From the NCBI GenBank assembly GCA_043228905.1, contig JBHGNT010000008.1:21390001-21454000 (forward strand): a DNA stretch of 64,000 nt, read 5' to 3'. Shown here piece after piece: positions 3,777 through 44,826 of this stretch (positions are counted from its first letter, which is position 1; every line of letters starts with the position of its first letter). A program made the translations under genes and the position numbers. The notes under the pieces were generated by a model. That model was not told where the DNA came from. It ran no database searches and saw only the letters and a program-made list of their open reading frames with translations. Source of the stretch: Azolla caroliniana. Its lineage: Eukaryota > Plantae > Polypodiophyta.

Positions 3777-3782
3777 CGGCGT

Positions 3783-12000: not shown

Positions 12001-13719
12001 GATGGCTCTGTCAACCGATACAAGGCCCGGTTAGAAGCGAAAGGCTACACGCAGAAACACGGCATCGACTACGATGAGACGTTTGCGACGATCACGAAGA
12101 TGACGACCGTGTATGTTTTGCTCGCAGTAGCCGTGGCCAAGGGGTGGCACTTACATCAGATGGATGTAAAGAATGCGTTCCTGCAAGGTGAGCTTGAGGA
12201 ACTAGTGTACATGGTACAACCCCCCGGATTTCACTCCGGAACGAACACGTCGGCAGTGTGCCGATTGAAGAAGTCCCTTTACGGACTGAAGCAAGCCTCG
12301 CGTGCCTGGAACGCCAAGATCACACATCGTCTGCGTCGGATGGGCTTTGCGATGTCAAAATCGGACTCCTCACTGTTCGTTCGGAAAGGTCGACTTGGGT
12401 CGGTCAGTATTTTACTCTATGTTGATGACTTGGTCATCACCGGTGCCGACCTAGGTGAAATCAACCACGTGAAGCTTCAGCTTGCGGCATCATTCGACAT
12501 GAAGGATCTAGGAGACCTTCATTACTTCCTCGGGATCGAAGTGGTCCGCACCCCCGAAGGCATACTGATCAGCCAACGTCATTATGCGCTGAATATGCTC
12601 TTCAAATTCGGGATGGCAGACTGTAAGTCCGTCTCGACTCCTCTAGATAGAACCATCAAGCCTCGCCCCAATACCAGAGAGGTATGCGACCCGACGAGGT
12701 TCCGACAAATTGTCGAAAGCCTTATCTACTTGACAATCACCCGACCCGATCTCAGTTATCTGGTCGGGGTGATCAGTCAGTTTATGGAGCGACCTACCGA
12801 GGAGCACCTTCAGTGTGCGCAACGCGTACTGCGATACGTAAGCGGGACTAAGGACCGCGAACTGCTATTTCGGACCGGTCTAGCCCCGCAGTTGGTCGGC
12901 TACATCAATGTTGATTGGGCTGGCAACGCCGCCGATCGCCGATCGCCGATCCACGTCCGGATATGCGTTCTCTCTTGGGAGTGCCACGATAGCATGGAGT
13001 AGCAAGAAGCAGCCAACAGTTGCACTGTAGAGCACCGAAGCCGAGTATAGAGGAGCGGTTGTCGCGACATGCGAAGCCATATGGTTGAAGCGGCTACTTA
13101 AGGATCTGCAGGTGGAGGTGTCCGACTACTTAAGGATCTGCAGGATCTGCTCGCGAAGAACCCCGTCTTCCACGCACGGACCAAGCACATTGAGGTACAC
13201 TACCATTTTGTCCGTGAGCGTGTCCTTTTTGGTGAAGTCAAACTTCAGTATGTTCCGACAGATCGGCAGACCGTCGACATCTTCACCAAGCCTCTTGGTC
13301 TGGACAAGTTGTGGCAATTCTCGGGTGCGCTTGGGTTGCGTCACCTCGACGTGCCGAACTTGAGGGGGAGAGACGTCCCAAATGACCATGGAAGGGAGCA
13401 GGAAAGGAGCGGAAAAAACCGTAGCGCCGAGTCGGATGATGAATTCGACTTCGGATCGGCTGAAGAAGCCGAAGGTGGATCCGCCGATGAGTCCGAAAAC
13501 GGACATAAGGGGAGCAACCAGAAGAAAGAGCCAAAGCCAACCAAGCATGGGGGAGATGACATCGTCAAGGGCAAGAAAACCAAAGACGAGTTGGAGACAA
13601 CCAACTCAGACGAGAGCGAAAACCGATCGGGGGTAGCCGAGTTGGTTCGGATGTTTGATTCAGATACACTGAATCAATTGAGGGTCAAGCGGAAAAGAAG
13701 GCAGCAGGAAAAGCGCTAA
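9088..13719 (+). pseudogene. Copia A gag-pol, disrupted (gag, zinc knuckle, PR, INT, RT, RH)
   Basis: CWYCGKKGH knuckle; WYVNSGA protease; HSDVWGP, LRSDG and EQNGVSE integrase; LYVDD RT; RNase H TKHIEVHYHFVRE. Many stops and frameshifts. Confidence 0.92.
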
Positions 13720-23263: not shown

Positions 23264-25384
23264 GCAATAATCTGGCCCTCTTCCTCGATGAAGCACCCAA
23301 GGTGCATAAACCGCACCTGCATCCCCTAGTCAACGATCTGTCCTACCGACACCAGGTTCTTCGTGATTGTCGGAACGTGTAATACGTTCATCAGCTTCCC
23401 CTTCTGTCCGACGTGGCTCAAAGGCACTTCTCCGACATGCACGATTGGGTGAGGAGTGTCGTCTCCGGTTTCGACTACTCCTGGTTGATCCGGTTTTTCC
23501 AAAAAGGAGAACCACTCTTTGTGGCTCATCATGTGGTTCGACGCACCGGAGTCAACATACCACACTTCCTCCGATTTGGAAGTGGTCTTCTTCATCGAGT
23601 TCGCCTCATGCTTCATCACCAAGGCTGGCCCGTTACCGTTCTTGGATCCTCCCGATCCCTTCGCGTAGTGCGAGCTTTGCCAGCCTTATCGGATCCGGTT
23701 TTGTCCGAATCGGTGCGTTTTCTCCAGCACTCGCTTTCTCTGTGGCCCTTTTTGCCACAGTACCAGCATTCCGTTGTAGATTTGTCTTGCCAGCCTCCGG
23801 CACCGCCTTGACTCCCCCTGCCTGTGGAAGTCCCGGAACTGCTGTCGGCACGTTCTCTGTGCCTTTGTTCTTGCTCTTGCCGGCCGCCTCCATTGTGTGC
23901 CGGCCCGCCTCATTCACCACACCCACAAGACCGATCCACCTCCGTGTACAGCATCCGACTATCAGTGGGTGTGCTAGTTGATGCACCGGCGTGGTTCTCC
24001 TCTACAAGGAGCATCGACTATAAGTCGAAAAATGACGGGGTATCCTCCCTCGTACACACTGCCGTTCGGAACGCTCTGAACTTCGACGCCAGGCCCCCAA
24101 GACAGACCTATACCATCTCGTCTTCCTCTACGGTAACGTTGATAGAGGCAAGCGAGTCACGGATCTCTTTGATCCGGGCCGTGTAATCCGCCACCGACAT
24201 GTCCTTCTGTCAGACATTGCTCAACTCCTATCGGAGTTGCAGCTTCCGGGCTGTTGTGCTCGCGGCGAACACATTCTTCAAGTTCCCCCAAGCCTCCTTC
24301 GGCATCTTGGCGTCTCGGATGTGGCTCAGCAGCTGGTCTCCGCACAGGACGCGAAGTTGTACATCACTCTGCTTGCCGATTGTTCCCACATTGGGAAGTC
24401 CTTATGTGCCGCATCAGGTGTTGTTTCGTTGGCTCCTTCGAGGAAACTCCAGTAGCCATGCCCAAGCAGGTACTGGTGCATCTTATACGACCAAAATGCA
24501 TAGTTGGATCTGTCGAGTTTCTCCACAGGGAGCGAGCTAGCCATCCCTCTATCCATCACTTCTCTGTCTGCTGTTTTACGACCTGTTAGGGTTTGTTGTC
24601 AAGCGTTTGTCGGTTGCAGAGGAGGTTCTCAACCCTCGCGCTCTGATACCATGTAAACGATTGCTTGCGGAAGCGTTGTCGTAGTGTATTCCACACACTA
24701 CGTGAAAACCATAAAATAATATATCCAATTTTAGATACATATAAATAAATAAATAATATATCAAAATATTTATCACGTGCATAGGGCAAGATTCGAACCC
24801 TACACCTCCACGTAAATAAACCTCAACTTTACCATTGTAATAACTTATCTTTAGTGTTATATATATAGATTTAATATGTATAAGACCTTTATTTATACAT
24901 ACCTTTATTAAAAGGTAAAAATCATGTATTCTTTAGGATGTGAATATTTTATTTACACGTGACATTAAAAGTGACTCATGCACATCTAGCGTGCATGAGC
25001 CCTATACTTAGGAAATGACAAAGCATCACATGCACATTTAGTGTGCATGGACACTTTTGGTGAAAAAGCATGAAGCCATGCTTAGCCTCTTCCATCTTTA
25101 TATAAGGAGGAGAGAAATATGTATAAGGTTGTTGATTAATATACAGGGATTGATCAATCTAATATATTCGTGGAATTCACGAATTTTGCCACCTAAATTA
25201 CTCTTATAATCTAAATATTGTTTTAAATACACTAAACTCGTGGGATTCACGAGATTGCTATCTTACTTCTCTTTCTACTATTCATAACTAGCCTTAAGTT
25301 GTATTCCTCTTCCTCCTAGTCCAAAACCTCGGCGGTTCCCACCCGACTCACGCAACGATCCGGAGCCGAAACGCACAACACAGT

Positions 25385-25402
25385 TGGTGAACCCGACGTG
25401 AA
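25385..25402 (+). other. Primer-binding site complementary to the tRNA-Trp 3' end
   Basis: TGGTGAACCCGACGTGAA is the reverse complement of ...TTCACGTCGGGTTCACCA of plant cytosolic tRNA-Trp; it lies 4 nt after the LTR. Confidence 0.85.
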
Positions 25403-25419
25403 AACCGGGTGGCAAGGAG

Positions 25420-27460
25420 ATGGAAAATCAACCGGAGGCTAGCAACATGATGATGATGTTCGAGCGCATGCTACAAGAACAACGCGCGATGTTGGAGATA
25501 GCGGCATCAGTGGAGCGGCTCGTGCAACGAAACAGGCAATCCAACGGGAAAGACGTGTCGCGGTATCTTCGGGACTACAAGGCGGAGATGCTACGGTGCG
25601 GAATATCGGAAGGACTGCAAGTGACGTCCTTCAACCGGGTGGCGACCGACGGGCTTCAAGCAAGCATCCATGGGCTACGACAACAAAATCCGACATGGGA
25701 GGCGTTTGAAGAAGAGCTAAAGAGGACGTTCGCCGTCGAGGATTCCTCCAAGGCGACGCGAAGGGGATTCGAAGATTGGGTGGAGACGCCGGACAAGGGA
25801 TTGAAGGTCGTTGATGTGTTTTTGGCATTCGAAAGCCGGTTCGGGAGGTTGTCCGAGAGGTCAAGCTATCCTCGTACCGGACAAGGTGATCATGTTCTTG
25901 TGAGCCATGGACGTCCGGGACCGGAAAGATCTCGGAGTGCTCTTGGAGGACACGACCATGGAGAGTGGCCTCACCGAAACATGGGAAAGCGTGCGGGATA
26001 TCGTCGCACGATACACGAAGAGGGGGCAATGGCTTGCCAACGAGGAAAAGAGGGTTTCGGAACCGATTCCGAAACCGAGAACCGGATTGGAAGACCATCA
26101 ACCGAGGGCTCGGGAGACTACAACCGAGAAGGGGATTGATGCATCTACGGTGGAGCAACTATTGAAGGAGATGGAGAATCTGAAGATCGCGATGGTGAAG
26201 AAGTCGGATGACCGCCCCACAAGCTCCAAGTATACGGACCGACGGTGCATATGATGCGATAGCGCCGAACACGATCGGAGGGATTGCGACGAGCATAAGG
26301 AGGCGCTACGGTGGGATCTCATCTACTATGAGGGAAACCGGATTCATTCGATGGACTCTCGGAAGCCACTCCGACCGAACTTCCGGAAAGGCGGCATGAA
26401 GAAGGTGCTCGAGGAGGAATTGCCAGCAAGAAGCAACTATGCGACAACATCGGGAATATGTGTCGGGGAGTCATCGAGAGCAAAGACGTCTTTTTGGCCG
26501 GAAGTTCTAGAAAACACCGAGAAAACCGACTCCAACGAGATCTGAATCACCGCGGAAGGCGTCCGGGAAGCTACGGGATGGGAGTGCCCTGTCGACAAGA
26601 ATAGCGTATACGCCCTGTGTCAATTGCATAAGGTGTATGTGGACGAGAAACGACGACGCACGGAGGATGCGGCCGGGCCATCGAAGATACTGGAAAGCTG
26701 GAACTCCGGAGGTAAGGGAAAAGAAAAGGCGACTCCGGCATTCAAGCTCGCCTCGGACATAGAACAACAAACCGACTTGAAAAGAGTGTTCGAGGAAAGA
26801 ATCTTGGATAGCCGGGTAGATTTCTCGCTTCGGGAGCTACTCGGAATAGCAAAGAAGGAGTTCCACGATCTTCTCGTGGATCTCATGAAGCGAAAAAGAC
26901 AAAGTACGGAGGAAAATCCTCCAAGGGTGAATGCGAACACCGTTTTAATGAACGACACCGAAGTGGAGGACGAAATTCCGAACTCCCACTATACAAGGCC
27001 ACATTGGGCACGTGCGACTACGGAGACTCCGGTCCGAATCGGCAACATCAAAGAACCCATGCTAGCATTGATTGATCACGGATCGGAGGTCAACTTGATG
27101 TCCAAGGAGTTCTACCGGAAGGGGAAGTGGCCTATTAACACCAACCATGGATGGAAGATTCGGGCGGCCACCAAAGCAACGGAAGATCTATTTGCGGCTT
27201 GTCCGGATGTGACAGTGAAGATCGGGGATGTCGAGATCGAGCAAAATTTCTTCGTGCAAGATGAGGTTTCACATTCCGTCATCCTCGGCCAACCCTTTAT
27301 CACGGCATCACAGATGGAGACGAAGGTGCTCGATAGCGGTGTGGCTTTTGCGCGAATTCGGAGCCAAAACGGTGGGAAATCCGTCCAATTCCTAACGGTG
27401 CCGGCAAATCACGAAAGGAACAAGAGGGAACTCTTGTCCCAAGTCAGAATGGATTTTTAA
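25420..27460 (+). pseudogene. Gypsy C ORF1: gag and aspartic protease (disrupted)
   Basis: Gag start MENQPE; degenerate C-x2-C-x4-H-x4-C at ~26246; PAFKLASDIE segment; protease LIDHGSEVNLM; ends RMDF-TAA. Confidence 0.85.
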
Positions 27461-30400
27461 AGCGGACTGTTGCGGAGTGGGGAAGTGATAGTTCGAGAAG
27501 CCCTGATACCCCACATAGGAAGAAAACTCTCGGAGCAAAACATGTACGAATCGGTCCGGATGGGGCATCTACGTACATGACCGTAACCGGAGGATTGAAG
27601 AAAGGATACCGACAAGTCGAGGATAAGTTGCGGTCGGCATCAATAATAAAAGAAGATGAAGAAATCATGGGGATAGTCGAAGAAGTGTTCTATGGGAGCA
27701 CGCTACAACGACTTGAAGAGCTTGCGGAAGATAAAAGCCAAGAGAACCGGGTAGTCCCGGTGGAATCGGTCGAGATGTATGAGATCATTGCGAAAATGGA
27801 GCCGGATACGCTCCGCAAAGAAGAAGCAATGGTAAGTACGAAATACAAGACCATGGAGAAGAAGGTGAAACCGGCCACGGGACCACTACCCGCCGATAGC
27901 GAACAAAAGAGGAAAGAAGTCTCAGGAGATCCAACACTTCGGAAGTCCGTGGATATCAGACATGCCTTCACGGATAAGACCCGGAAGAAACTTCGGATCG
28001 GTGGAGGTGGGTTCCTATTACAAAAAGAAGAAGAACGGTTTCGCGAGATGTTGGAGCAACACGGCAAAGCGTTTGCATTTACATCAAGGGAGATAGGGTG
28101 CGTTGATCCGAGAATAGTGGAGCCGATGGTGATCTTCACGATTGACCATGTACCGTGGAACCTGAAGCCGATTCCGGTGCCACGAGCGCATATTCCAAAA
28201 GTCATTGACTTGCTCAAGGAGAAGGTGGCGATGGGGATTCTAGAGCCATCAACTGCTCCGTACTCAAATCGATGGTTTACAGTTCCGAAGAAGAATGGGT
28301 CACTCTGATTTATCCAAGACTTGCAACCGGTGAATAAGGTCACGATCCGGAACTCGGGAGTCAGTCTGATAGTGGACGACTTTGCGGAAGCTTTTGCCGG
28401 TCGTGCGATATACTCCATCAGAGACCTATACTCGGGGTATGACCAATTCCAACTAGCCGTGGAGAGCCGAGACATCACAACCATGCGAACGCCGATAGGA
28501 TTAGTCCGAATGTGCACACTACCACAAGGAGCGACAAACTCGGTTGCTCATATGATGAACGCGATGAATAAGGTGCTTCGAGACTGCATTCCGGAGATAA
28601 CGATGCCGTTCCTCGATGACATTCCGATGAAAGGATGCGCGGTAGAAGAAAAAGATGAGACTATGGATGATCGGGGATGCCGAAAGTTCTTGGTCGACCA
28701 TATTCATGATTGCGAGAAAGTGTTGTGAAAGCTAGAAGATGTGCACCTAACACTTTCCGGGGAGAAATCGGCATTCGGGCAAGAAGAAATATTGGTGGTC
28801 GGACATCTATGTGGGCCCTACGGCCGAAGACCGTCACCAACAAAGATCGATGCGATTCAAGCTATGGAGGAAATATGCGAGTCAACATCCGAAGTCCGAA
28901 GGTTTCTCGGTGCATGTGCATTCTATCACATATGGATTCCGCACTATGCACATATAGCGGACCCGCTCTACCACTTGTTGCGGAAAGGTAAGAAATTCGA
29001 ATGGAAACCGGAACACACCAAAGCCATGAAGAAATTGAAGAAGACACTTCGGAGGGCGGAAGCACTTAAGAAGCCGAGCTATGACCGACCGATCATAGTA
29101 ACGGTTGATACAAGTCCAACCGGTATCGGGTGGGTCATCAATCAAGCCGACTCGGATGGTTCGCGGTATCCGATCCGATTCGGAGCAAAGGTTCTCAACG
29201 AAAGGCAACGTGGATATGCACAAGTCAAAAGAGAACTGTGGGGAGTCGTGTCGGCGATAAAATCAGATCGGGATTATTTGATCGGAGCCGAAGTGGTGAT
29301 CGAGACGGATTGTCTTCCGATACTCGGGATGATGCGGTGTTGTACGATACCAGATGTAGCTATGCTAAGGTGGGTTGCATATGTCAAGTCGCTTAATCCG
29401 GAGGTTCAACACATCTCGGGGAAGGACAACGCGGTAGCGGATATGTTATCAAGGGCTCGGTTTGGAGACGACATAACCGAATCGGATAATGAAGAAGTTT
29501 TCGAAGACTACTTCGCGTCAGAGCACATATGCCGAGTGAACGTAATCTGAGAATTCCGGGAAGAAGAATACGAGGGAGAAAGCTTGATGATCGGAAAGAT
29601 GTTACAAGAGGCCGAGGATTCAACAAACGATAAAGGAAGAAGAGCCGAGATCCGAAGGAAGAAGAGGCAAGTCCAAAAGTTCTTCTTGGAAAACGGATTA
29701 ATATGGAGGGCGCCAAAAAGACCGGATGGTATACCACTTCGAGTAGTCGGGACAAAAGAGCAACGAAACCGGATAATGTCCGAGTTTCACGAATCCGATT
29801 GGGCTGGACACCGAGGAACATGGGCAACATTTGTGAAGATCAAGCAAAAATATTGGTGGAAGAAAATGTACAAAGATGTCGCGAAGTTCACGGAAAGCTG
29901 CGAGAAATGTCAAGTCTACTCCGGGGTTCGACATCGAGATGAGTTACATCCGACATTCTGACCGACAATCAACTTCAAGTGGATGGTCGACATAGTGGCC
30001 ATGCCGACCGGGATCGGACAAAAGAAATACTTGGTATTAGCTCGGGAAGATCTCACGAATCAAGTAGAAGGTCGAGCGCTTCAGAGGAAAACGTGTTCCA
30101 CGGTATGCCAATTTCTTTTGGAGGAAGTATTTTGCAGGTACGGGTGCGTAGGACAAGTGATTACGGACCGGGGAGAACTCAACTCGGACAAAGCTAGGGG
30201 ATTCTTCGCCAAACACGGAGTTTAGTTATCGCTGACAACGGCATACAATCCGGAGGTCAACGGGAAAATCGAACGAGGACATAGTCCGATCGTGAAAGCA
30301 CTTGCGAAGGCATGCGATGGAAAGGTGAAGGACTGGCCGCAGATGCTTCCGTATGCACTATGGGCGGATCGGACGACACATAGCTCCGTAACCGGTTACA

Positions 30401-31080
30401 TGCCGGCAGAACTCATGACCGGACAAGCACCGGTAATGCCGACGGAAACCGCAATCGCAACATGGACAGTGCTACCGTGGAAGGAAGAGATGAGCCGGGA
30501 AGAACTACTAGCGGTCCGGATACGACAACTAGAGGGAAGACCGGCAGACATAGCGGAAGCAATACGCCGACAACAAGAAGCACGATTCCGGAACAAAAGC
30601 CGGTTCGACACAAAGCACCGACTACGACCGAGGAGGATTGAAGAAGGAGATTGGGTGATCGTCTATGACAGTAGTTTGGACCATCAACATACAACGATGC
30701 GGAAATTCACGAAAAGGTGGTTCGGGCCATACGAGGTTCGGAAAGTCTTCGACAACGGAACATACCGACTGTCCGAGTTGGATGGAACAATACTACGAGT
30801 GCCTATAGCCGGGAAGCGGGTGAAGATTTTCAAGAAGCGGACCGACGACAAACCCTATGTGATCCAAGCCAAGGCTAACAACGAGGAGCAATCGGACGAA
30901 GACCACGGTGATGCGGGAAGCGAAGAAAGTGAATTACAACTCATAGTCGACATAAGGGGAGAATCGGTGGAAGCTTTGGGTGAAGACGGATATGAGGAAT
31001 CGAGAACTTCGGCACATACCGGAGGATGTGCGGGTTCGGAGGGGGCGAGTGTCGTAGTGTATTCCACACACTACGTGTAA
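27451..31080 (+). pseudogene. Gypsy C ORF2: RT, RNase H and integrase in the -1 frame (several single in-frame stops)
   Basis: RT DLYSGYDQ, LPQG, FLDD; RH VDTSPTG, ETDC, NAVADMLSR; INT H-x6-H/C-x2-C, TDRGE, NGKIERGH; GPY; no chromodomain. Confidence 0.9.
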
Positions 31081-32929
31081 ACCATAAAATAATATATCCG
31101 ATTTTAGATACATATAAATAAATAAATAATATATCAAAATATTTATCACATGCATAGGTTAGGATTCAAACCCTACACCTCCACGTAGATAAACCTCAAC
31201 TTTACCATTGTAATAACTTATCTTTAGTGTTATACATATAGATTTAATGTGTATAAGACCTTTATTTACACATACCTTTATTAAAAGGTAAAAATCATGT
31301 ATTCTTTAGGATGTGAATATTTTATTTACACGTGACATTAAAAGTGACTCATGCACATCTAGCGTGCATGAGCCCTATACTTAGGAAATGACAAAGCATC
31401 ACATGCACATTTAGTGTGCATGGACACTTTTGGTGAAAAAGCATGAAGCCATGCTTAGCCTCTTCCATCTTTATATAAGGAGGAGAGAAATATGTATAAG
31501 GTTGTTGATTAATATACAAGGATTGATCAATCTAATATATTCGTGGAATTCACGAATTTTGCCATCTAAATTACTCTTATAATCTAAATATTGTTTTAAA
31601 TACACTAAACTCGTGGGATTCACGAGATTGCTATCTTACTTCTCTTTCTACTATTCATAACTAGCCTTAAGTTGTATTCCTCTTCCTCCTAGTCCAAAAC
31701 CTCAGCGGTTCCCACCCGACTCACGCAACGATCCGGAGCCGAAACGCACGACAGCGTTAGAAAAACAGAGAAATTAGGGGAAAAACAGAGTACGCGGGAG
31801 AGACAGAGAGAGCAAAACATAAAAGCTATATTCAAAAACGATATATGCCTCTGTCCTTTACAATTGTGCTCAGTAGCACTATTTATACAAGTCCTCATGG
31901 GACTGACAGAAGTACCATGTACTTCAATGCTCACACGAGCTTCTGACACTTACTACGAGACTATAATTGCCTAGTAGTCTAAACTAATATTAGGCTTCCG
32001 GTTACCGATTGGACCCGGCTAACCGGCTCCCCAGCTCACCGGCTCTGTTGCTTGCCGGCTTACTGATCCGTCTCACTTGCTGGCTCAGGCTTATTCAGCC
32101 GATCCGGCTCGAGTTGAGCGTGCCACTTCAACAAGAGACAAGCTCAACATTTGTGCGTAATATGATGCGTAACTAGTGCGTAGACTGGGTGCGTAAACTC
32201 GGTACGCATAACATGGTCATAGTGGTGCATAAACCGTGAGGCCGTTAGAAAGATATTCCTCGTAAGGAATAGTTTTGGGAGTAAGTGTCGAGGCTCATTT
32301 ATGAGCAGTCAAGTACTGTCAGTACTTGTGTCAGCTCGATTGTCAGGGCTTGTATAAAAGTGCTCACTGAGCACATCCTATGTACAGATTGAGTATTAGT
32401 TTTGAATTAAGTTCTTGTGCTTACTCTCTCTCTCTCTATCTCTCTCGTGCGTACTATGCAAACCTAAGCTTTCCATTAAACCTACGTCTTCTGTTGTTCT
32501 ATCTCCTATATTGCTTCTGCATGACATTCTTTTCACATTATGTATTATATAAACCCCTTATGGGGCATGTAATGGAATATAGATTTTTCCCTCTCATTTC
32601 TATGTCATTTTTCTCTCTCCTCTCTCTCCCTCCCTCACTCGTAACCCCCTTGGGAGGGGGTTGGAGTTGTTTCATGGCTTCACCCCCCACCCATTAACAC
32701 TTTCCATATGTGAACCTATACAAGATTCAAGAATATGCATGTACAAGACTCTCAAATGTACAAAGCAAAGAAACATGAACAACAAGAATGGACAAACAAG
32801 AACAAAAACATTTAACTTCATCAACAAGAATAGAAAATCATATCATCATAGCACCCTCTTTCCATATGTGAACATGTACAATATTCAAGCAAATGCAAAA
32901 CATGCAACAAAGCCTAAAGTAGGAGGAGA

Positions 32930-33330
32930 CCCAGATGTCGTACAGGTTGTCGATGTCATTGTAGAGGTCGTTCCAGAGGGGACACAACGACCACAAGTCG
33001 CAAGCAAGGGAACATACCGAGTAGAGGGAACACAGTGAGCACAAGTCATTGACAGAGGGAACACAACAAGCAGAGGTGGTTGTAGAGGGAACACAACAAG
33101 CAGACGGAACACAACCAACAAAGATCGATGCAGGGAGGACACGATGAGCAGAAAACGCCTTGAGGTTGCAGAGGGGTCACAACGAGGAGAGTGAGCAGAG
33201 AACGTGGGGAAACAACAAGTGAAAGGTCGTTGCAGAGAGGACATGACAAGCAGAGAACACTTGGAGGTTGTAGAGGGATCACAACGAGCAGAGTGAGCAG
33301 AGAACGTGGGGAAACAACAAGAGAAAGGTC
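32930..33330. repeat. Degenerate tandem repeat (GTTGYAGAGGGRACACAACRAGCAGAG-like units)
   Basis: Recurrent AGAGGGAACACAAC units and a ~100-bp direct duplication (33145-33230 vs 33249-33330). Confidence 0.7.
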
Positions 33331-33454
33331 ATAGGAGAGAGAGAGAGAGATTGTGTGCGTGAGAGATTGACTGACTAACTGAATAAATGACTTACAACTC
33401 GAGATCTTATACAGTTAAGTACTCCGTACAACTTTATGGAGGACACCGCCAGGC

Positions 33455-33885
33455 CCAACATTCAACGAGCGACTCATTGAGTTTTTTGTCGACGCTCGAC
33501 AATTGAACCATTGAGGATTCATCAATGTTAGACATGCCAAATGCTCCATGAGCGACTCCTCGAGCATTCGTCTACGTTCAACTTGTCGAACATTCGATGA
33601 GCAACTTGTCGAACATTCGTCAACGTTCGACGAGCTGAGAACTCAACGAGCAACTCGTCGAGTATTCGTCGACACTCATCGAGCGACTCATTGAGGATTC
33701 ATTAACGTTTGATGAACCAAACGGTCAACAAGCAACGTTTTGAGCATTCATCAATGTTCAACGAGCCACTCGTCCAGGATTCGTCAACATTCAATCAACC
33801 AAACATTGGATGACATGAACGCTCGAGCATTCGTCAATATTTGACGAGATGAACGTTGAACACGCCGAACGCTTGACGAGCCAGG
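33455..33885. repeat. Degenerate ~40-50-bp tandem repeat (GAGCATTCGTCAACGTTCGACGAG-like)
   Basis: Repeated GAGCATTCRTCAAYGTTCRAC and GAGCGACTC motifs. Confidence 0.65.
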
Positions 33886-34069
33886 AACCGTCGGCCAAGA
33901 GCTAATATGTTGACGCCACTAAACCCGAAGCTGATAGGTCGAAGCTATAACCAAAAGCCAACCCGTATAGAGGTCGATGAACCAATCGTTGATGCGAAGC
34001 AAAACTCAACCCAGTGAGAGGCCAAAGGCCAACGAGGTCAGAAAACCGGAGTTCGGGACAACCGAAAGG

Positions 34070-35880
34070 TACAATCTCCCTCGCCTCCAACTCCCTAGTT
34101 CCAAAACCCCATCATTCCACCTAGTCGACTCGCATGCGCAAAAATAGCGTGACATCATTGGTGAACCCGACCTGAATGGGTAGGAAGGGAAATCATCATA
34201 AGGGGAGGAGAGCTTGCCGAAGCAATGTCGATAGCCATGGACTGCTTGGAAAATGCCCGAGAGAGTTTGATTGGCCTAGATCATGTCATAGGGACGGTGG
34301 TCGGCAGATCAGGCCAATTCAGTGGAAGAGATATCACGAACTACTTGGAGGCCTACAAGGCCGAGATGCTAATCCGCGACATCTCAAAAAAAAGGCAACT
34401 AACTAGGTTCACCAAAGTGGTGATGTTGAGCATCCACGTTGAGATGCTCAAGATACAAGGAGACTGTTACAATTTGGAGGAGTTCAAAGAGAAACTCCTC
34501 GAGAAGTACGACCTCGACAACTCTCTTCTATTTCAAAGAAAGACCTTATGGAGTGGGTTGAGCTTCCTGGCAAAGGAAGGAATACCACGATGCTTCTTCA
34601 AGAATTTGAGAAGCAATTCGCTTGACTCTTGGCATTGGACAAGAAGATCCTCGACACAAGCAAGGTTTTGTTGTTTATAAAGGTGGTTGATGCATGAGAC
34701 CGGCAGAGGATGGGACTCCTCCTCGAGACAAACAACCAACTAACAACGGATTGTGCCATAATGAAGAGGGTTTGTAGTTGCTTCGACAAGAGGCGCAAAT
34801 GGAACGACAAAGGGTCGTCGATCCGCCAAACCTTCACAAGGAAAGCAATGGTGGGGCTCACCAGGGCCAAAACAACGAGAGGGCCTGCCAACATGGGCCC
34901 CGCACCTGCAACAAACATAGTAGAAGGGTCGTCTAGAGGATCGACAATCGCGGAGCTTACAAAGATGGTAAGATCACTGAAGCAGGAGGAGACGAAGGGG
35001 GCCCTCCTCAAGACCGATGTTTCACACTTGCACAAAGGTGCATGTGGTGTGATAGCCCTGACCACCTAAAAAGAGATTGTTGGGACTTTCAAGATTCCTT
35101 GAGAAGGAACGTTGTCATAGTGTATTTCGTACACTACGTGAAAAACGTATAAAGTACCCGATTCAATAAATATGAAGAAAACGAAGAAAATATGAGAATA
35201 CATGTTACATGCATAGGGCAAGATTAGAACCTTGTACCTCCATGTTAATAATGTAAATCTTTACCAATACACTAACATATCATTAGTGTTAAAAAAGTAG
35301 ATGTCCCACATACAAAGGTATGTTCATGCTAAGATAAACTTTATTTAGAAGAAAAACGCATGATAAAAGAAAAAAACTACACATGCATGAACATTATATT
35401 CGATAAAAAAAATGTATGAGGTTAGAAAAAACATGTTAGAGAAAGCATATAGTCTATAGTTAGAGAAAAGCATGGATTGCTAAGACTCTCTCATCACTAT
35501 ATAAGGATGGGGAGCACAATGTAATAAGGGGGGGAAAACTTTGGAAATTGGATATATTTCTAAAAACACCAATTAATAAATTATATTCGTGGGATTCACG
35601 AAATAAACTATACTCGTGGGATTCACAAGGTTTCTATATTTTTCTCTTTAAATCTAAACTCATATTCTTATCTTAATATTGATTAATCTAATAAAATACA
35701 TTATACTCGTGGGATTCACAAGGTTTTTATATCTCTTTCTTATAATCTATTCATATTCATACCTAGATTAGCCTCAAATTCTTCCACCTCCTAGTCCAAA
35801 ACCCCGGCGGTTCCCACCCAACTCACGCAACGATCCGGCACCGAAAGGCACGACACAATTGGTGTACCTTTGAAACGACA
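34070..35880 (+). mobile_element. Old Gypsy remnant E of the C lineage: LTR 3' end, tRNA-Trp PBS and decayed gag
   Basis: U5-like CCTAGTTCCAAAACCCC; LTR end GTGACA at 34154; PBS TGGTGAACCCGACCTGAA 34159-34176; gag FSGRDITNYLEAYKAEML aligns with C gag SNGKDVSRYLRDYKAEML. Confidence 0.8.
35113..35855 (+). repeat. Isolated Gypsy LTR (743 bp) related to C, inside the gag of remnant E
   Basis: TGTCATAGTG...GCACGACA; both ends closely match the C LTRs while the middle is diverged; no TSD. Confidence 0.88.
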
Positions 35881-36060
35881 TGTCGTGAAGATTTTCGGCA
35901 ACAGTGTGAAAATCGCGTGGAATGGAGAAAACCGAGAAGGTGCAATGTGCACATGTATCGTATGTTAACACTTGAGATGGGTTTTGAACCTTAACCTCCA
36001 AGATAAGAGACAATTGACATACCATTAGGCTAAGTTGTTTTCGTTATTGTGTCGTAGGCT
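35881..36060 (+). repeat. 5' fragment of another Gypsy LTR
   Basis: Begins TGTCGTGAAGATTTTC, like the LTR at 806 (TGTCGTGAAGAATTTC); right boundary unclear. Confidence 0.5.
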
Positions 36061-36404: not shown

Positions 36405-36519
36405 AGTAGTTTACCACAAAAGGCCCAAAGCGGGGATGCAACTTCAAGTTTTGCCAAAGTGTTGTTTTGGCAAAACTTGAAGTTGCATCCTCGCTTTGGG
36501 CCTTTTGTGGTAAACTACT
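36405..36519. repeat. Near-perfect inverted repeat (54-bp arms, 7-nt loop)
   Basis: 36405-36458 vs 36466-36519 with one mismatch, which is a G:U pair in RNA. Confidence 0.95.
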
Positions 36520-37736
36520 TCAACATTTCATTTCTTTTTTTGTTTTCCTTCCCTTCCCTTTTCTATTTATTTCTTTGACCTCACAAAATTCATTTGCCAA
36601 AAAGATGTGCTTTAGGTGCTTTGGCAAAAGCCAAACTCGCAACTTCTCATTAAGGAGTGTGTGTTTGAGGTAAACCGCTTCAACAATCTTCTTAGCTTTT
36701 GATTTTTTCTGTGTGTTTGAGGTAAACTGTTTCAACAATCTTCTTAGCTTTTGATTTTTCTTTTACTATTTGTATTATTTTATGCAGGTTATATGTCTCT
36801 TACACAAACCATCTTCACTATGTTCCTTCTCTGAGAGCCTCCTTGAAGTCGATTTTCCTTCACGATTTTCTTCACGCTTGCAAGCTCCTCCTTTCCTTGC
36901 TTTTCATTCACTCATTTTCCATGCCTTCTCCCACCTTGGTAGAGGGCTTTTATGGGAGATGCAAACTTAGGCAAATTGCTCATCGTCGGTTGCATTTTTT
37001 TTTATTTTTTTTTTGTATAAACATAATTTGACCTTTAAAATAGTCAATCCCCACTTTTCAAAAATTACAAATTTGACCTTATTTTATCTCAACCCCCTTT
37101 TAATATAATTACAAATTTTTCCCTTACAATCTTGAACTTAACATTATCTTTTCGGAGGTTGTAGCATGGGCTTCCATAGGTCGATTCATGGCCCGTATCC
37201 TGAATGCTCTTTGCCACAAGTACTAGCTGGTGGGATTCGTTTTTTATCTTCTTGACATTGTTTCAAATTTCAATATCATGAAGCCTTAGCTTTATGATAA
37301 CGTGCACCACTACTTCTTTTTCTTTTGCATGCCTCTATTCTTAGAATAGCAAGGACTCCTTATGCTAGAAGGATCAAACCCTTGACCTTACCATTCCAAT
37401 CATTAGCTCATGCTAGTTGATTTTTGTTGCCATAACTGATAACAAAATTCAACTCACCCTTGTTTTTTATTTATCATAAATGCAATTCGAGACACTTTCC
37501 TTCATTGTACACACCACTCCACAACGGTTATGCTTGTAACATACTCCCCCTGTCTCTAAAAAAGTTCACTCTTGCAATGAAAAGTTAGGAAGTTGATATT
37601 GTTAAGAGAATCTTCTTGATCTTTATGTAGTACCTTCGATAGAACCATTCATCTATTTTATTTTAAACTCTGGAATAACTTACATTGTAAGTGTTTAGTT
37701 TTAGAATCGAGAATTCATTCTTGCCTATGAGGTCTA

Positions 37737-38643: not shown

Positions 38644-41600
38644 TCAATGTGGCCTCGTACGAGTCGGCTCTTGGGGCCTACACCGAAAAGAGGGTGGCAG
38701 GTGAATAGGAAACAACCAACGTGGGGGCTGGTAGTTCCACCTCGGGCCACTCCCGCCTTGCATCACCATAGGTGTGTTCCGCCATTTCTGCCAAAAGCGC
38801 AAACGGGCAGTGGTCACGTCGTTGGAGTGGCTGCAGATCTCTTCTAGTTGCCCTCGTAGGCAGCTGATAAGCGCGAACCATATGTCCATGATCACTTCCT
38901 CCGGGGGGCGTACCGTACCTTGGAAGACCTTGAGGCAACGCGCTTTCCATATATACCACAAGGTGAAACCTGCGATCAACATCCAGATTTCCGGAAACCT
39001 AGGGGATGCGGGCTGCAAGCCTCTTTCAAAACGGATCTTGACGATTTTGCCTCTCGTGCATACATAGCACCAACTATCCGCATTGACGGCGTCCGTCCAC
39101 CCTTCGACCGAGTGATCAATCCATGCCGCAGCGCTCCACGAGGCTGTTCCTTCAACGTCACATGCCACAAGGAGGCGAGTCACTCTATCCCATATCTTTT
39201 GAGCTTGAGGGCAATCCCACAAACAATGTCTCAGAGACTCATTAGGTAGAGAGCACAGTGGGCAGCCTAACGGGCCGCCCCGTTTATCTAACCATTCGCC
39301 AACGGGCACCACATTATGACCGATCTGCCACCAAAAGAGCTTGATCTTTTCAGGCATGTGGAGACGCCAAAGACCCTTCCAAAAGGCAATGAGCGCCTCA
39401 TCGGGGATGCCCAATGTTCGCCAGCCGTTGCGAAGGGGGCCGCCTCGCTGCAGTTGCAAAGTCCGACCCAATTTAGTGGTGTAATCGAAGAAGTGGTGGA
39501 GTCTATCGTCATGTTTCCATCTGAAATCCCCGGGGTCCCAATCCAGATCGACAAGGGGCCGGCAACCGTATACCCTTAACCTCCAATGGGGTTCCACCTT
39601 AGCAACATCCGGGTCTGTCTTCCAGATGTTATCAATCTGTGCCACCACTCGGATTGGGTGCCAAGAGCCGCTGCTCTGGCTGTCCCCAAAAACTGTATCA
39701 CTCCCCGATCCGCTCATGCCCTTTAGCGCCTTGACCATTCCAGCCTCGTCAAAGAGACCGAACCATGCATGTTCTCTCGCCACCCCCATCGGAACCCTGT
39801 CAACTGCCTCAGCTATCAGTCTCCGCATTTTCGTAGCTCCCTTGAGGGGAGGGAAAAGGACCTCTTGGGCTCTTCCTGAATCAGCCATGCGTCTCCAATC
39901 GTCTATAGATAGGAGGCCTGTTTGTGCCAACTTTCCCCATGCTAGGCCCTTAAGTTGCCCTAGCATCGCGTTGTCATTCGTTCGCACATGAGGATTCCAG
40001 AATAGTGGCTGTCTAGTCCATTCGGTCAATGTTTCCGGGGTGTGCTTGACCAAATGTTGTCGTATATGGCACCATGCCCGCAAGATGGAGTTCGTGACCC
40101 TATCCTCCGGATGGCAAGCCAGCCTGGGTGGGACTCCACTCGTGCAGCACCGATTCAAGGAGTCGGGCCAAGGCCTACCATACTTGGGAGTCCCTACTTG
40201 CAGCCTGTTGCGAAGAAGTACCTTCCAGCACCCCTTACCTGGCAGGAGGCAGCGAACCACCATTTTAGCCAGCAATGCACGACTCTGCATTAAGGGGTCT
40301 ATGAGGCCAAGCCCCCCTTTGGCCCGCGGTTGCGTTAACCAACACCATGAGACTCTGGCGGCAGCCCGTGGGTTGTCCTTACCTGACCATATAAACCCCC
40401 GAATGGCAGCCTTAATCGCGTGCAAACCTGCAGGGTCCATAATCCAGCATGAGACTGAGTGCCACATGGTAGCGAGCAGCACTTGGTTCGCCACAAGGAC
40501 CCTACCAGCGAAGGACAATTTTGATCTACTCCACTGGTTCAGCTTCTTACTTATTTTGGCTTGTACGTGGGCCAATTGAGCTCCCTTGGGGATTGACCTC
40601 CCCATCGTAAATCCAAGGTACTTGAAAGTCGTCCCACTAGGGACCCACGTAAAATCGGCATGGGGTTGCCATCTTGGTGTCTCCTGTTCGCTGAACCATA
40701 GACCTTGGGTTTTATTCCAATTGATCTTGGCACCAGCCGCCTGACAAAAGTCCTCGACAAGATGTTCAGCCCGCTGTAAATTCTCCTCATCACCTTGCAA
40801 GAAAAGAACCGTATCGTCGGCATATTCAGATAACAGCAAATCTTCAGTCGCATTGGGGATGGGCAATCCCCGCAACCCGCTAGTTGGTGCTTGTAAGTAG
40901 GCGGAGAAAGCCTCGGTTATAAAGAGATAGAGATATGGGGCTAGGGGACAGCCTTGCCTCACTGAGCGTTGTAGTTGGAAGGCGGGTCCCCTAGATCCAG
41001 CCATCAGCACGCTACTCGTAGCTGTCCGATAGAGTGCAGAAGTGCAATTCCTCCATTTTTGAGGTAGGCCCAAAGCTCTCATCACATTTTCCAAGAAGGG
41101 CCATAACACCCTATCGTAGGCCTTCTCAAAGTCTAGCATCAGAATAGCCGAGCTCGATACGGAGCGACCGGCCAATGCCATAGCTTCCCAAAGAAGCAAC
41201 ACATTATCAAAGATACACCTGTTCTTGACAAACCCAGTTTGATTGTCATGTATGATGTCCGGTAAGAAGCTTGCTAATCGCTGAGCAAGGACTTTAGCGA
41301 GTATCTTGTATGTCGTGTTAAGGATCGTGATTGGACGCCATTGGCGCAACTCTAGGCTTCGCTCTTGGGATTTGGGGATGAGATATATCATCCCCTCAGC
41401 CAGACCAATCGGCATCTTTCCTGAGGACCAAATCTCTTGGAACCCGGCTTCCAAGGACGGGATAACACATTCCCAATGAATCTCGAAGAAATCTCGTGAG
41501 AGACCATCGGGACCGGGGCATGCACCCCTTCGCAATCCCCTAAGTGCCTCCGAGAGCTCTAAACGAGAGATGGGACTATCGAGCACAACTTCCATCTCTT

Positions 41601-42957
41601 GGGTTACCTTGAGGTGAATGCAAGACATCACTCGATCAGCCAGCTCCGAGTTTTGCCGCACATGCGTAGGTGCGAGGAGGTCACGATAGTATTGTGTTGC
41701 CATTTCCAGAACCTCAGTCTTGTCCTCCGTTATTGAGCCGTCTGGTTTTCGCAGCCCGTGTATACGTCCACCACCACCCTTGGGTGCCTTGTAGTGAAAG
41801 AAATGTCGGTTGACCTTGTCGTCTTTTCTAGCCCACCATGCTGCGTTTCTTCGAAACAGCATTCGGTTCTTCTCCAAAGTCCTTTCATGTACCTTCATCT
41901 TTGCTTCCTCTAGTTTAGCTCTAGACCATTTGCAACCAGGGTCTACCTGTAACAGCCGTTGCGCTGCCGCAACGGCCTTCCTTAATTTTGTTTCAATGGC
42001 TCTAACCTGTTGGAGGGCGCGCTTGGTCTCTTGTTGTAAAAAGGAGGACGAGCGGGCCAATTTTTTCTGCAGATCTTCGCTGGCTGATTTACTGCCCATG
42101 GTGTCCTGCCATATACTCTGTAAACCGGCCTTCACCTCTTCACTCTTCATGATCTTTATGGGGATCTTTACATTGAGACTGCCCTTGCTATCGTTGGGTG
42201 GGTTAAGGTCTAGTCTCACCGGCTGATGATCTGAAAAGGTAAGGCCTGCCAAGATAGCAAAGGAGCCCCCGAGCTCTTCGAGGGATGAGCTGATGTATAT
42301 GCGGTCTAGCCGTGCAAGACTACCGCCCCTAGCATTCCCGTCGGCTCTAGAAAAGTGCAGCGAATGTGAGCTTCGCCTAAGGGAAGAGCCCCATGTATCC
42401 TTCACCCCGATTTTGCCAATTAGGAAAGCCCATGAATCTAGCTCCGCACCATAAATAGGCCTCTGGGTCCCTCCTTTCCTATCTCCCATGTGTTCAGTCA
42501 TGTTGAAATCACCTACCATTACCCAAGCCTCGACATTAGGTAATGTTGTCGCGAGCATCCTCCAAAAGATTGCTCTCTCGGGGGCTGAGTTAGGGGCATA
42601 AATGTTTAGCACCCCAATCTGTAGGCGATTCCATTTCAGAAGCACGTATAAGGCCCGACCCTCCACCAGCGTGCCAGATGATGTTACTTCGTATCGGGCC
42701 TTATCGCTGATCGAGATGCAGACCCCTCCTCTTCGGTGGAGGTCACCCTGCGCAGCCGACCACCATGTGGTCCACCCACCCGACAAGGGGTTTACTAAGC
42801 TCTGAGTTCGCTCTTGCGAGAGGTGGTGTTCCTGCAAAAGCAATATGTCAATATGGCCCCCTATATTAAGGGGATTCAACTCCTCCTGAAGTCTTCTACA
42901 CTCTTGGTGTTGTCGGCCTCCACCAAGGCCCTGTACATTCCACGTTAGGATCCTCAT
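38644..42957 (-). CDS. L1 ORF2: AP endonuclease, RT and zf-RVT (1437 aa)
   Basis: TWNVQG, LQEHH, IYAP, GDFN, RLDRIY, SDH; LDFEKAYD, RQGCPLAP, YADD; CPLC...HCLWDC. Confidence 0.95.
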   Translation of the reverse strand: MRILTWNVQGLGGGRQHQECRRLQEELNPLNIGGHIDILLLQEHHLSQERTQSLVNPLSGGWTTWWSAAQGDLHRRGGVCISISDKARYEVTSSGTLVEGRALYVLLKWNRLQIGVLNIYAPNSAPERAIFWRMLATTLPNVEAWVMVGDFNMTEHMGDRKGGTQRPIYGAELDSWAFLIGKIGVKDTWGSSLRRSSHSLHFSRADGNARGGSLARLDRIYISSSLEELGGSFAILAGLTFSDHQPVRLDLNPPNDSKGSLNVKIPIKIMKSEEVKAGLQSIWQDTMGSKSASEDLQKKLARSSSFLQQETKRALQQVRAIETKLRKAVAAAQRLLQVDPGCKWSRAKLEEAKMKVHERTLEKNRMLFRRNAAWWARKDDKVNRHFFHYKAPKGGGGRIHGLRKPDGSITEDKTEVLEMATQYYRDLLAPTHVRQNSELADRVMSCIHLKVTQEMEVVLDSPISRLELSEALRGLRRGACPGPDGLSRDFFEIHWECVIPSLEAGFQEIWSSGKMPIGLAEGMIYLIPKSQERSLELRQWRPITILNTTYKILAKVLAQRLASFLPDIIHDNQTGFVKNRCIFDNVLLLWEAMALAGRSVSSSAILMLDFEKAYDRVLWPFLENVMRALGLPQKWRNCTSALYRTATSSVLMAGSRGPAFQLQRSVRQGCPLAPYLYLFITEAFSAYLQAPTSGLRGLPIPNATEDLLLSEYADDTVLFLQGDEENLQRAEHLVEDFCQAAGAKINWNKTQGLWFSEQETPRWQPHADFTWVPSGTTFKYLGFTMGRSIPKGAQLAHVQAKISKKLNQWSRSKLSFAGRVLVANQVLLATMWHSVSCWIMDPAGLHAIKAAIRGFIWSGKDNPRAAARVSWCWLTQPRAKGGLGLIDPLMQSRALLAKMVVRCLLPGKGCWKVLLRNRLQVGTPKYGRPWPDSLNRCCTSGVPPRLACHPEDRVTNSILRAWCHIRQHLVKHTPETLTEWTRQPLFWNPHVRTNDNAMLGQLKGLAWGKLAQTGLLSIDDWRRMADSGRAQEVLFPPLKGATKMRRLIAEAVDRVPMGVAREHAWFGLFDEAGMVKALKGMSGSGSDTVFGDSQSSGSWHPIRVVAQIDNIWKTDPDVAKVEPHWRLRVYGCRPLVDLDWDPGDFRWKHDDRLHHFFDYTTKLGRTLQLQRGGPLRNGWRTLGIPDEALIAFWKGLWRLHMPEKIKLFWWQIGHNVVPVGEWLDKRGGPLGCPLCSLPNESLRHCLWDCPQAQKIWDRVTRLLVACDVEGTASWSAAAWIDHSVEGWTDAVNADSWCYVCTRGKIVKIRFERGLQPASPRFPEIWMLIAGFTLWYIWKARCLKVFQGTVRPPEEVIMDIWFALISCLRGQLEEICSHSNDVTTARLRFWQKWRNTPMVMQGGSGPRWNYQPPRWLFPIHLPPSFRCRPQEPTRTRPH

Positions 42958-44423
42958 CCGAAAACGGTGACGTTGGCGCCCATGTTCGGGCCGATCTCCA
43001 TGTCATGGGGCAAACTAACACCTGTTTCGGGGGGTATGGTCTCCACTGCAGGCTGCAAATCCCCTACAAGATTCTCAGCCGGTCGTTCTCGACCCGCTTC
43101 AAATAGATCCCGCGATACATTTGTGCTCCGAAGCGGTGGCACAACTTGCACCCCTCTATCTAACAGAGTCGTCGCCAAACTAGGTGTTGGTCTTCCTATC
43201 TTACCCTTTTCTTTGTCCTTGAGCTTGCCCGTCCGGATCCACGATTTCACTAATCTGAGGCCACTACCACATTCCCGCTCCACCGGGAGGGGGGGCTGTG
43301 CCAGCTTCTCTTCCGGGGTGGGCGGTACAAGTTGGGGTTGCATCTCCATCGGGGTGGAGAACACGAGTTCGGGCTCCCGCGGGGGAAGGCGTGAGGAGTC
43401 GCACGGGGATAGCATTGCTGCCAGCGCTGCTGGGTCGCCATCCCCTAACCCTTGAAGAAGTGTAAATCTGTTGGTAGCTCTCACCTGTAGGTCGGGTGCC
43501 TTGGCACTCCCGGAGAGGATCTTTACTCGTTTCAAGGGTTGCTCGTCCACGCTTGCTGGTGACAAGGTGGCAGGACTTCTTTCAAGGGGGTGGTCATGAA
43601 AGAGGGCGGGAGAGGAGGCACCTAGGCCTCCAAGTTTCCCCTTCTTCTTAACGGGTAGCCAAGGAGCTTCTTCACCCTTGGATGTCCCGACTTTGCCCGA
43701 GGGTCGTGGTCCCGAGCTTCCCTTTCCAATCTTACGAGGACACTCCTTAGCTAGGTGTCCTGTCTGTTTGCAAATGAAACACTGCCCCGGGAGTCCCTCA
43801 AAAACCACTTTTACCACTGTGAGGCCTAACTCCTCAGAGTAGAGTCTAATCCTTGATGGAAGTCCATGGAGGGAAGGCACCAAGATACGCAACTTGGGCA
43901 CCTCTGCGACTGTGTCTGCCATTGACGCTTTTTGAGGGCATATCATTCCTACTTGTTCGCCAAAAAGAGGGAGCAGATGGTACAAATGTGGAGGGAGGCC
44001 AGGAAATGTTGCGGTGATCACCCTAGGGTTGTTGAGTTTCCGTAACTCTTCGATCGGATTGAACCCTGGTGACCATGGTTGGAGCAACACCTTGCCGTAC
44101 TTCAGTTCGAGTACCTTGAGCTCGACCAATGGCTGCGCCAGCGAGTCATTACCTAATTCAATGTGGAAGAAGTTTTTCCCTAAACCCCTGACACTCTTGA
44201 TTACCGGCATGTTCTCCAACACAGCCACCTGAAACATGTCCCGAACCATGCCCCGACTTGGTCTACCTGCCAGAAACCTACATACGAAGGAGGTACGCCG
44301 TAGGCGTTCGATTTCTTCCGCTAAGACACGGTTAGCCTCGGGGGACAGGGTAATGGCGAGATCTGATCCACCTTCTTCATCGAGCAAATTGGACGCTGGT
44401 GGAAGCTCGATTCCTCCCATCAT
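42954..44423 (-). CDS. L1 ORF1 (DUF4283-like RRM plus CCHC knuckle), 489 aa
   Basis: LGKNFFHIEL, LLQPWSPGF and CFICKQTGHLAKEC, followed by a disordered tail. Confidence 0.9.
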   Translation of the reverse strand: MMGGIELPPASNLLDEEGGSDLAITLSPEANRVLAEEIERLRRTSFVCRFLAGRPSRGMVRDMFQVAVLENMPVIKSVRGLGKNFFHIELGNDSLAQPLVELKVLELKYGKVLLQPWSPGFNPIEELRKLNNPRVITATFPGLPPHLYHLLPLFGEQVGMICPQKASMADTVAEVPKLRILVPSLHGLPSRIRLYSEELGLTVVKVVFEGLPGQCFICKQTGHLAKECPRKIGKGSSGPRPSGKVGTSKGEEAPWLPVKKKGKLGGLGASSPALFHDHPLERSPATLSPASVDEQPLKRVKILSGSAKAPDLQVRATNRFTLLQGLGDGDPAALAAMLSPCDSSRLPPREPELVFSTPMEMQPQLVPPTPEEKLAQPPLPVERECGSGLRLVKSWIRTGKLKDKEKGKIGRPTPSLATTLLDRGVQVVPPLRSTNVSRDLFEAGRERPAENLVGDLQPAVETIPPETGVSLPHDMEIGPNMGANVTVFG

Positions 44424-44826
44424 AGCGAGTTATGTGTCTTGCGAGCCTAGGTTGTATGTGTTGTTCTTCCCTTCCCCCTTTGTTTTGTGTTTTTTTTAGT
44501 GTGTTACTTTGCGTTTTCTGGTTGGGGGAGGGAGGGAGGATTGTGTGTGAGAGTACCTGGACAGCAATTGGCGTTGTGCTCCTCCTCTTACTCTGTTGGA
44601 CAGCGCGCGTGTTCCTCAGTGTGCACCTACTCCTGCTCCTGCACGCCTTTTCCTGCTGCTCCCACTCCGCGCTCTGCTGCGTTTGCTCCCGCCAACGCTC
44701 TGCTGCTTATTACCTGCAGTTCTCCAGTGTGACGGCTTGGACAGCAGTTGGCGCCTCTGGCTCTGTTGGGTAGCGCGCGCGTTCCTCAGCGTGCACCCGC
44801 TCCTGCTCCTTCTTTCATAGCTATGG

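Follow-up and report, generated by a model that had tools for sequence, protein, structure and literature searches.

Transfer RNA-like putative RNA polymerase III cassettes in the long terminal repeats of Phygy-type Gypsy retrotransposons: candidate shields of the element promoter

Transfer RNA (tRNA)-like parts are known from long terminal repeats (LTRs) in gene-less miniature retrotransposons, and RNA polymerase III (Pol III) units from those of foamy viruses. In autonomous plant Gypsy LTRs they are apparently new, as no description was found. Such cassettes are reported here from a 64,000-nucleotide (nt) stretch of the fern Azolla caroliniana (assembly GCA_043228905.1, contig JBHGNT010000008.1, positions 21,390,001 to 21,454,000; "the window" throughout) and from related metagenome loci. 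They lie in the unique 3' (U3) region of LTRs of Phygy-type Gypsy elements, in the window those of element C, LTR D and LTR fragment F, within a retrotransposon nest that spans 7.7-36 kb.

Statements on published systems refer to excerpts of the sources cited. In Helenus (TRIMp3), one of the TRIMs (terminal-repeat retrotransposons in miniature), tRNA-derived A and B boxes lie in the LTR and, as in the cassettes described here, the boxes are kept and the cloverleaf is lost; Helenus-1_SMo of Selaginella also shares the GGAGGT motif and the 32-nt gap (PMC10886601). Helenus is non-coding and 311-1263 bp long (PMC10886601), whereas the Phygy-type elements here measure about 7 kb, contain gag-pol and have a TATA box. 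The Helenus cassette is in sense orientation in the one plant family seen and was proposed to drive the element's own RNA, whereas here it is mostly antisense with its own T-run (PMC10886601). The Phygy-type elements thus lack two features that mark Helenus: they are not short and non-coding, and the promoter is not placed to copy the element. Kojima (2024) states that "not a few" Repbase LTRs have tRNA-like parts, of which only TRIMs below 1 kb were followed, and expects little LTR sequence in common with autonomous partners (PMC10886601). Cassandra, another TRIM, likewise conserves a Pol III promoter and terminator in a plant LTR; unlike the cassette, it is 5S-derived, non-autonomous and sense, and makes its own element RNA (PMC10886601). 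In foamy viruses, which are autonomous, the LTR holds self-contained units made up of an A box, a B box and a terminator; these units are optional, U3 deletions being viable in culture. They give structured microRNA precursors directed against host genes, whereas the cassettes here have no shared fold, are of tRNA ancestry, occur in either orientation and belong to plant Gypsy elements (PMC3993851).

Phygy itself was described from Physcomitrella with elements of 7.7-10 kb, whereas C is a 7.1-kb fern element; the two are alike in the NCGN duplication, an interior filled with coding sequence, the absence of a chromodomain hit and, presumably, the tRNA-Trp primer site (Neumann 2019, PMC6317226). 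The words "polymerase III" and "SINE" (short interspersed nuclear element) do not occur in the text of that paper. No account of Pol III boxes in LTRs of Phygy elements, or of other autonomous Gypsy elements of plants, turned up in a literature search that did not extend to subscription journals, to Repbase entries or to supplements on bioRxiv; Repbase notes could hold one.

Four cassettes are found in the window, one in each LTR of C (C5 and C3), one in D and one in F (Table 1). A scan of both strands (A box with up to two mismatches, B box with up to one, gap 25-60 nt) recovered eight A/B pairs: the tRNA-His gene, the four LTR cassettes and three pairs with gaps of 52-55 nt. Gaps of 31-32 nt occur only in the four cassettes and tRNA-His. 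With a looser pattern and a gap of 31-33 nt there are 6 pairs; 30 local shuffles yield 0.83 on average and never more than 3. ARAGORN and Rfam made no call on the window cassettes, and the only ARAGORN gene in the window was tRNA-His. Among the matches listed, sequencing-run contigs from organisms A, B and C represent a multi-copy family, in which common variants at 24837, 24839 and 24840 fit the A-box pattern better than the window copy does.

The initial annotation had placed the boxes on the minus strand 31-32 nt apart, and they are present there in C5 (gap 32 nt), C3, D and F. It had given the B box of C3 as GGTTCGAATC; the actual letters are GGTTTGAATC, with C56 lost. The two C LTRs differ at 15 sites, 4 of them inside 24786-24795. 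The T-run noted shortly downstream in C and D was recovered, starting 23 nt and 31 nt past the B box, respectively. A suggested role as an outward promoter does not fit these signals: in C and D, Pol III would meet its T-run and halt while still some 75-87 nt within the LTR, and as the C unit would end 87 nt inside, there would be no read-through into the flank. The insulator that had been suggested as the alternative is, as a candidate role, the preferred reading.

Fragment F matches loci L051 and L056 in LTR start and cassette; the integrase of these two loci shares 65-67% identity with the C integrase. Relative to L051 it has deletions of about 21 and 78 nt, the second of which took out the T-run, and one spacer base is lost. 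Because of these deletions its cassette lies at 101-152 from the LTR start; in intact relatives it lies at 186-251. A non-LTR nature of the piece at 35881 was considered and ruled out by this match to the LTR start.

Table 1. Cassettes and Phygy-type element features in the window (window coordinates)
Feature	Position	Strand	Remarks
Predicted Pol III unit, C5 U3	24763..24856	-	A 24842-24832, AGGT 24807-24804, B 24799-24790, T-run 24766-24763; start site inferred
Cassette in C3	31136..31229	-	A 31215-31205, B 31172-31163, T-run 31139-31136; gap 32
Cassette in D	35187..35288	-	A 35274-35264, B 35231-35222, T-run 35190-35187; gap 32
Cassette in F	35981..36032	-	A 36032-36022, B 35990-35981; gap 31; a deletion has removed the 3' flank with the T-run
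5' LTR, Gypsy element C	24677..25380	+	704 bp, TG...CA; 97.9% identical to 31050-31753
3' LTR, element C	31050..31753	+	from LTR-to-LTR match
TATA box, likely Pol II promoter of element	C5 25099..25106; D 35498-35505	+	sequence; TATAAGG block conserved in alignment
Primer-binding site TGGTGAACCCGACGTG in C	25385..25400	+	conserved site
gag-pol of C	25402..31031	+	broken by stops and frameshifts; DUF4100, reverse transcriptase-RNase H, integrase with GPY/F-type end
Polypurine tract of C	31038..31049	+	sequence
LTR D, C's clade	35113..35855	+	5' flank ACGT; decayed primer site after D; lies in gag of E
LTR F, 5' fragment, third family (like L051, L056)	35881..36048	+	two internal deletions
Element E (fourth Phygy-type), primer site and gag	34159..35112	+	LTR without cassette, an internal negative case

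With an alignment of the integrase end, 80 metagenome loci (60-97% identical to C) were retrieved; an integrase scan of viral contigs gave 0 loci. The LTR could be assessed (at least 300 nt of 3' LTR) in 56 of the 80; of the others, 11 lacked a recognizable 3' LTR start and 13 fell short of 300 nt. L005, whose placement came from BLAST, joined the set after a count on 55 stretches, and the labels of L022, L023, L036 and L051, affected by a wrong TATA call, were corrected by hand. Box pairs with a gap of 31-33 nt number 27 in 55 U3 stretches (24.3 kb), as against 5 in 20-fold shuffles (0.25 expected); 149 kb of coding DNA holds 5. By boxes alone (at most two mismatches) 25 of the 56 LTRs outside the window carry a cassette, and shuffles give 0-1/60. 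By a profile, a U3 cassette is found in 27 of 56, of which 20 are antisense, 6 sense and 1 both. The profile was trained on the cassettes themselves, and the profile-based AGGT counts, being circular, were left unused. In the C clade all 10 assessable loci have one. The module is kept in the U3 of many diverged Gypsy LTR families, but the claim that the lineage keeps it is not supported: 29 of the 56 Phygy-type LTRs, and E in addition, are without it in U3.

The cassettes sit about 100-350 nt upstream of the TATA box, in a slot bounded by the LTR edge on one side and by the Pol II promoter on the other. Position and strand, described at first as fixed and antisense, both vary: the distance from the LTR start to the near edge ranges from 49 to 490 nt, a sense copy occurs in 7 of 27 carriers, and some families, several in number, carry two or three cassettes. 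Both orientations are found in one U3 slot. Downstream of the TATA box, five loci (L038, L039, L051, L056 and L011) have an extra copy in sense. C, D, L032 and L040 are 78-92% alike in the sequence that flanks the cassette on its 3' side, yet the integrases of L032 and L040 share 68-69% identity with the C integrase, a pattern indicative of one origin and exchange of modules. Single linkage gives 14 lineages.

The LTRs of six loci (L052, L055, L070, L073, L011 and L047) switch family midway or hold a second LTR start; LTR-module exchange, nesting and assembly chimeras are alternative explanations.

The position and T-run statistics are based on 19 cassettes less than 80% alike, chosen by boxes alone. 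At tRNA positions that played no part in the search they are tRNA-like (A21 94%, G30 78%, T33 84%, A44-G45-G46 94%, T47 100%), which upholds the proposed derivation of the module from a tRNA. Eighteen cassettes align without gaps. No cloverleaf was recovered: stem pairing is 41-63%, no better than in shifted registers; RNAalifold finds 0 pairs over 18 cassettes; and ARAGORN reports 0 genes in 35 loci. No convincing SINE body, poly(A) tail or flanking duplication was seen in 45 cassettes, the best direct repeats being 7-12 nt and of an AT-rich chance type. The cassette is thus not a free SINE with its own tail and target duplication, one of the outcomes that had been named as fatal to the idea; strong hits were found only in LTRs, but little host DNA was sampled, and a free family may exist elsewhere.

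The T-runs, about 24 nt downstream, are placed as expected of terminators. None of the 19 cassettes has an internal T-run, against 4.3 expected from spacer shuffles (P about 0.004), and in 8 of 19 the first T-run starts 21-29 nt past the B box, against 2.0 expected (P about 0.0004; 6 of 14 after collapse to lineages), P values that are too small because the 19 cassettes are not independent, 5 of them being of one origin. A T-run lies within 40 nt in 34 of 45 strong cassettes, and the 40 nt upstream of the cassette are 64-86% AT. Judged from these signals, the cassette is likely a self-contained Pol III unit of type 2, about 95 nt in length, with its end still inside the LTR. Three poly(A) libraries from organism B gave 149-190 reads on 2 kb, nearly all element sense; depth over the cassette was 11-24 in sense and 0-0.7 in antisense, largely read-through from one flank. 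Since poly(A) selection would lose Pol III RNAs, these counts are evidence in neither direction.

A defined transcript would raise the question of whether the RNA itself acts. Pol III might make an antisense transcript, about 95 nt long and able to pair with the 3' U3 of the genomic RNA, that tunes silencing, packaging or reverse transcription, much as small Pol III RNAs are produced from foamy-virus LTRs. Terminator placement speaks for such a product, as do the antisense copy in 21 of 27 carriers and a hairpin around the B box in 8 of 19 cassettes (16% of control windows), and Pol III units in retroviral LTRs are real (PMC3993851). The hairpin registers vary among cassettes, though, no pair is shared in the RNAalifold consensus, folding is no stronger in the three window units than in their shuffles (z -1.44, -0.56 and +0.50), and 6 LTRs have a sense-only U3 copy, so that a functional RNA product seems rather unlikely.

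Within the C clade the cassette is apparently under constraint, judging from the LTR alignment. Pairwise identity over 11 C-clade LTRs is 0.85 in the A box, 0.87 in AGGT, 0.82 in the B box and 0.81 at the LTR end, against 0.56-0.65 in other U3 blocks and 0.51 in the repeat (R) region; the best-kept 10- and 11-nt U3 windows all overlap boxes. Length changes over the cassette in 0 of 10 C-clade LTRs, as compared with 3/8 to 10/10 in non-overlapping 53-nt windows. Boxes and spacing are thus kept better than the rest of U3, the check that the initial annotation had called for. In 23 distinct cassettes the B-box CpG is found as tolerated CA in 13, as damaging TG in 3 and as CG in 7 (P 0.021).

Our favored reading, to which we give an even chance, is that a tRNA-derived Pol III promoter and stop signal in many autonomous Phygy-type U3 regions would serve as a selected, optional shield of the Pol II promoter. 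tRNA or SINE heads would have been captured into U3, with one origin for C, D, L032 and L040 and either a single old origin or several for the remaining cassettes, and would have spread among families by exchange of LTR modules. The cassette would recruit transcription factor TFIIIC and Pol III, and the unit would be transcribed into an RNA of about 95 nt ending within the LTR, binding and transcription themselves being what matters, not the RNA. TFIIIC and Pol III would hold open a small chromatin island and so shield the Pol II promoter from silencing, a help to those copies whose insertion site is a dense, methylated nest of other elements.

Several features argue for this reading. The kept terminator points to transcription, since a terminator matters only if the unit is transcribed; the free spacer and the lack of a shared fold suggest that the RNA matters little; and the occurrence of both orientations in one slot suggests an effect on DNA and fits a DNA-bound factor. 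The cassette would be optional, since half of the LTRs manage without one. TFIIIC-bound tRNA genes are nucleosome-poor, can insulate and are hindered by methylation (PMC11346459), and from this and the slot upstream of the TATA box we infer the shield. tRNA genes and B2 SINEs are likewise Pol III-type elements that act as mobile boundaries; those cases come from yeast and mouse, with the B2 effect tied to CTCF, whereas the role proposed here concerns a plant LTR (PMC11346459, PMC8136502).

In a bolder form, which we put forward tentatively and would not expect to hold in full, autonomous plant Gypsy elements would have repeatedly captured tRNA-type mini-genes and kept them as portable anti-silencing barriers that borrow TFIIIC, some families having outward-facing units on both sides of the Pol II promoter. 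The continued activity of LTR retrotransposons in methylated nests calls for an explanation, and to our knowledge the Pol III machinery has been little tested as a boundary in plants. Families with and without the cassette, in both orientations and at high copy number, are natural pairs for both questions, which kinds of data already in use could address. Autonomous LTRs that already hold Pol III heads are also a possible source of Helenus-type elements, and in annotation cassette-bearing LTRs can pass for SINEs or tRNA pseudogenes.

A number of observations weigh against a shield. The LTRs without a U3 cassette include two large whole clades. The median T-run is more than 35 nt off or absent in 5 of 14 lineages, and the T-run statistics carry the non-independence stated with them. 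C56 is lost (TG) in 8 of 19 C-lineage copies, one of which is contig L001, a contig of deep coverage. Collapsed assemblies are numerous among the contigs, and L052, L055, L070, L011 and L073 are suspected to be chimeric. TFIIIC accepts wide A-B spacing (PMC12498455); because of this tolerance the strict gap of 32-33 nt is not explained by binding alone, and it fits recent, repeated capture from tRNA-like donors equally well. Finally, weak tRNA-like profile hits occur outside LTRs, in the window at 47978-48030, 48508-48560 and 37371-37423 (minus) and in L072 at 12017-12069. They score 15-25, and none of at least 14 was seen in 5 shuffles; the two similar hits at 48 kb may be relics of an old SINE and a possible donor pool.

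Part of this evidence would also suit a passenger origin, in which the heads of SINEs or of tRNA pseudogenes reached U3 on several occasions and were copied without use to the element. The cassette is patchy on the integrase tree, with at least 8 presence/absence changes in 57 rows (4 without the five suspected chimeras), lineages other than that of C, D, L032 and L040 are mostly at background identity outside the boxes, the weak hits are relic-like pieces in host DNA, and C56 is lost in many C-clade copies. Such an origin is nevertheless unlikely in our view: boxes outlast spacer and flanks in one clade without length change, SINE hallmarks are lacking, the T-runs are patterned, and all 45 strong profile hits in 415 kb fall in Phygy LTR sequence, in DNA that was collected for Phygy elements.

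Element C as a whole spans 24677-31753 (7077 bp) and is flanked by a 4-bp GCGT target duplication (24673-24676 and 31754-31757). Its interior is filled by the polyprotein, with no extra open reading frames, as in Phygy, and the polyprotein gave no chromodomain hit. By target duplication and domain content, and presumably by primer site, as distinct from placement in a reference tree, C fits the Phygy clade, of which the 4-bp NCGN is found in 100% and tRNA-Trp priming in 81% of 186 elements (PMC6317226). The loci also contain 7 LTR-like starts that lack a polypurine tract, and 5 of these have an NCGN flank. Named integrase relatives of C come from Riccia, Calypogeia and Ceratopteris. The primer site of C is presumably of the tRNA-Trp type, in agreement with the Phygy description; two pattern scans for the 3' arm of a host tRNA-Trp gave no match. 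One primer site is conserved in C, E and more than 20 loci, and it is identical in families that carry the cassette and families that do not.

The primer site also suggests a second site for the tRNA, in which the antisense cassette would pair with the D and T arms so that the primer bridges the two ends, as in the split site of Ty3. In Ty3 part of the primer site lies in U3 and pairs with the T and D arms (PMC5371799); the cassette corresponds to tRNA positions 8-61, which the primer site leaves free, and single positions such as T33 are kept. Against this very improbable arrangement, sense-only cassettes would be unable to pair with a tRNA, cassette-less families use the same primer site, positions 22-43 vary freely, positions 61-72 are unlike the primer 3' end read from the primer site, and pairing needs no downstream T-run.

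The nest offers another view: as in Ty3, Pol III complexes would attract the integrase, and the cassette would steer new copies into old ones. LTR F begins 25 nt past D, D is nested in E, nested LTRs also occur in L030, L047 and L052, and targeting of the Ty3 type exists (PMC5911963). C itself, however, is inserted in a Copia LTR with no cassette near the insertion, the tRNA-His at 57164 has no Phygy element next to it, none of the insertions seen falls at a predicted cassette start site, and the excerpted Phygy description gives the target preference as NCGN only (PMC6317226). A landing-pad function is accordingly the most doubtful of the explanations.

Element E occupies about 8080-8599 and 32538-35112 and has a long, repeat-rich LTR that a Copia element interrupts; in gag its nearest relatives are L024 and L027. 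A short GCACAT...ATGTGC hairpin (31012-31031) stands right before the polypurine tract of C and is kept there in almost every Phygy-type family despite otherwise unrelated LTRs; it is perhaps a plus-strand priming or packaging signal. In C-clade LTRs an inverted repeat, CGTAGTGT...ACACTACG, follows straight after TGT (24680-24703), and several other families have a similar short hairpin of different letters at the LTR start. Palindromes of the CATGCA type are repeated in U3 at 24974-25053, between cassette and TATA box, and are common to L032 and L040; we take them to resemble the RY elements of B3 factors.

The window further contains two long interspersed nuclear elements with endonuclease and reverse transcriptase, at 38644-44429 (minus) and 2907-7529 (plus), with open frames of 1452 and 1250 aa, respectively, the former with a zinc-knuckle ORF1. 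At 36405-36519 there is a near-perfect 54-bp inverted repeat with a 7-nt loop, resembling a miniature inverted-repeat transposable element or a hairpin RNA. Host genes are CslD (51514-55643), tRNA-His (57164-57235), PPR (57826-59565) and WD40 (61527-63272). The CslD exon at 53844-55640 has 85% and 81% identity to two Ceratopteris proteins and 69-76% to the others listed, mosses included.

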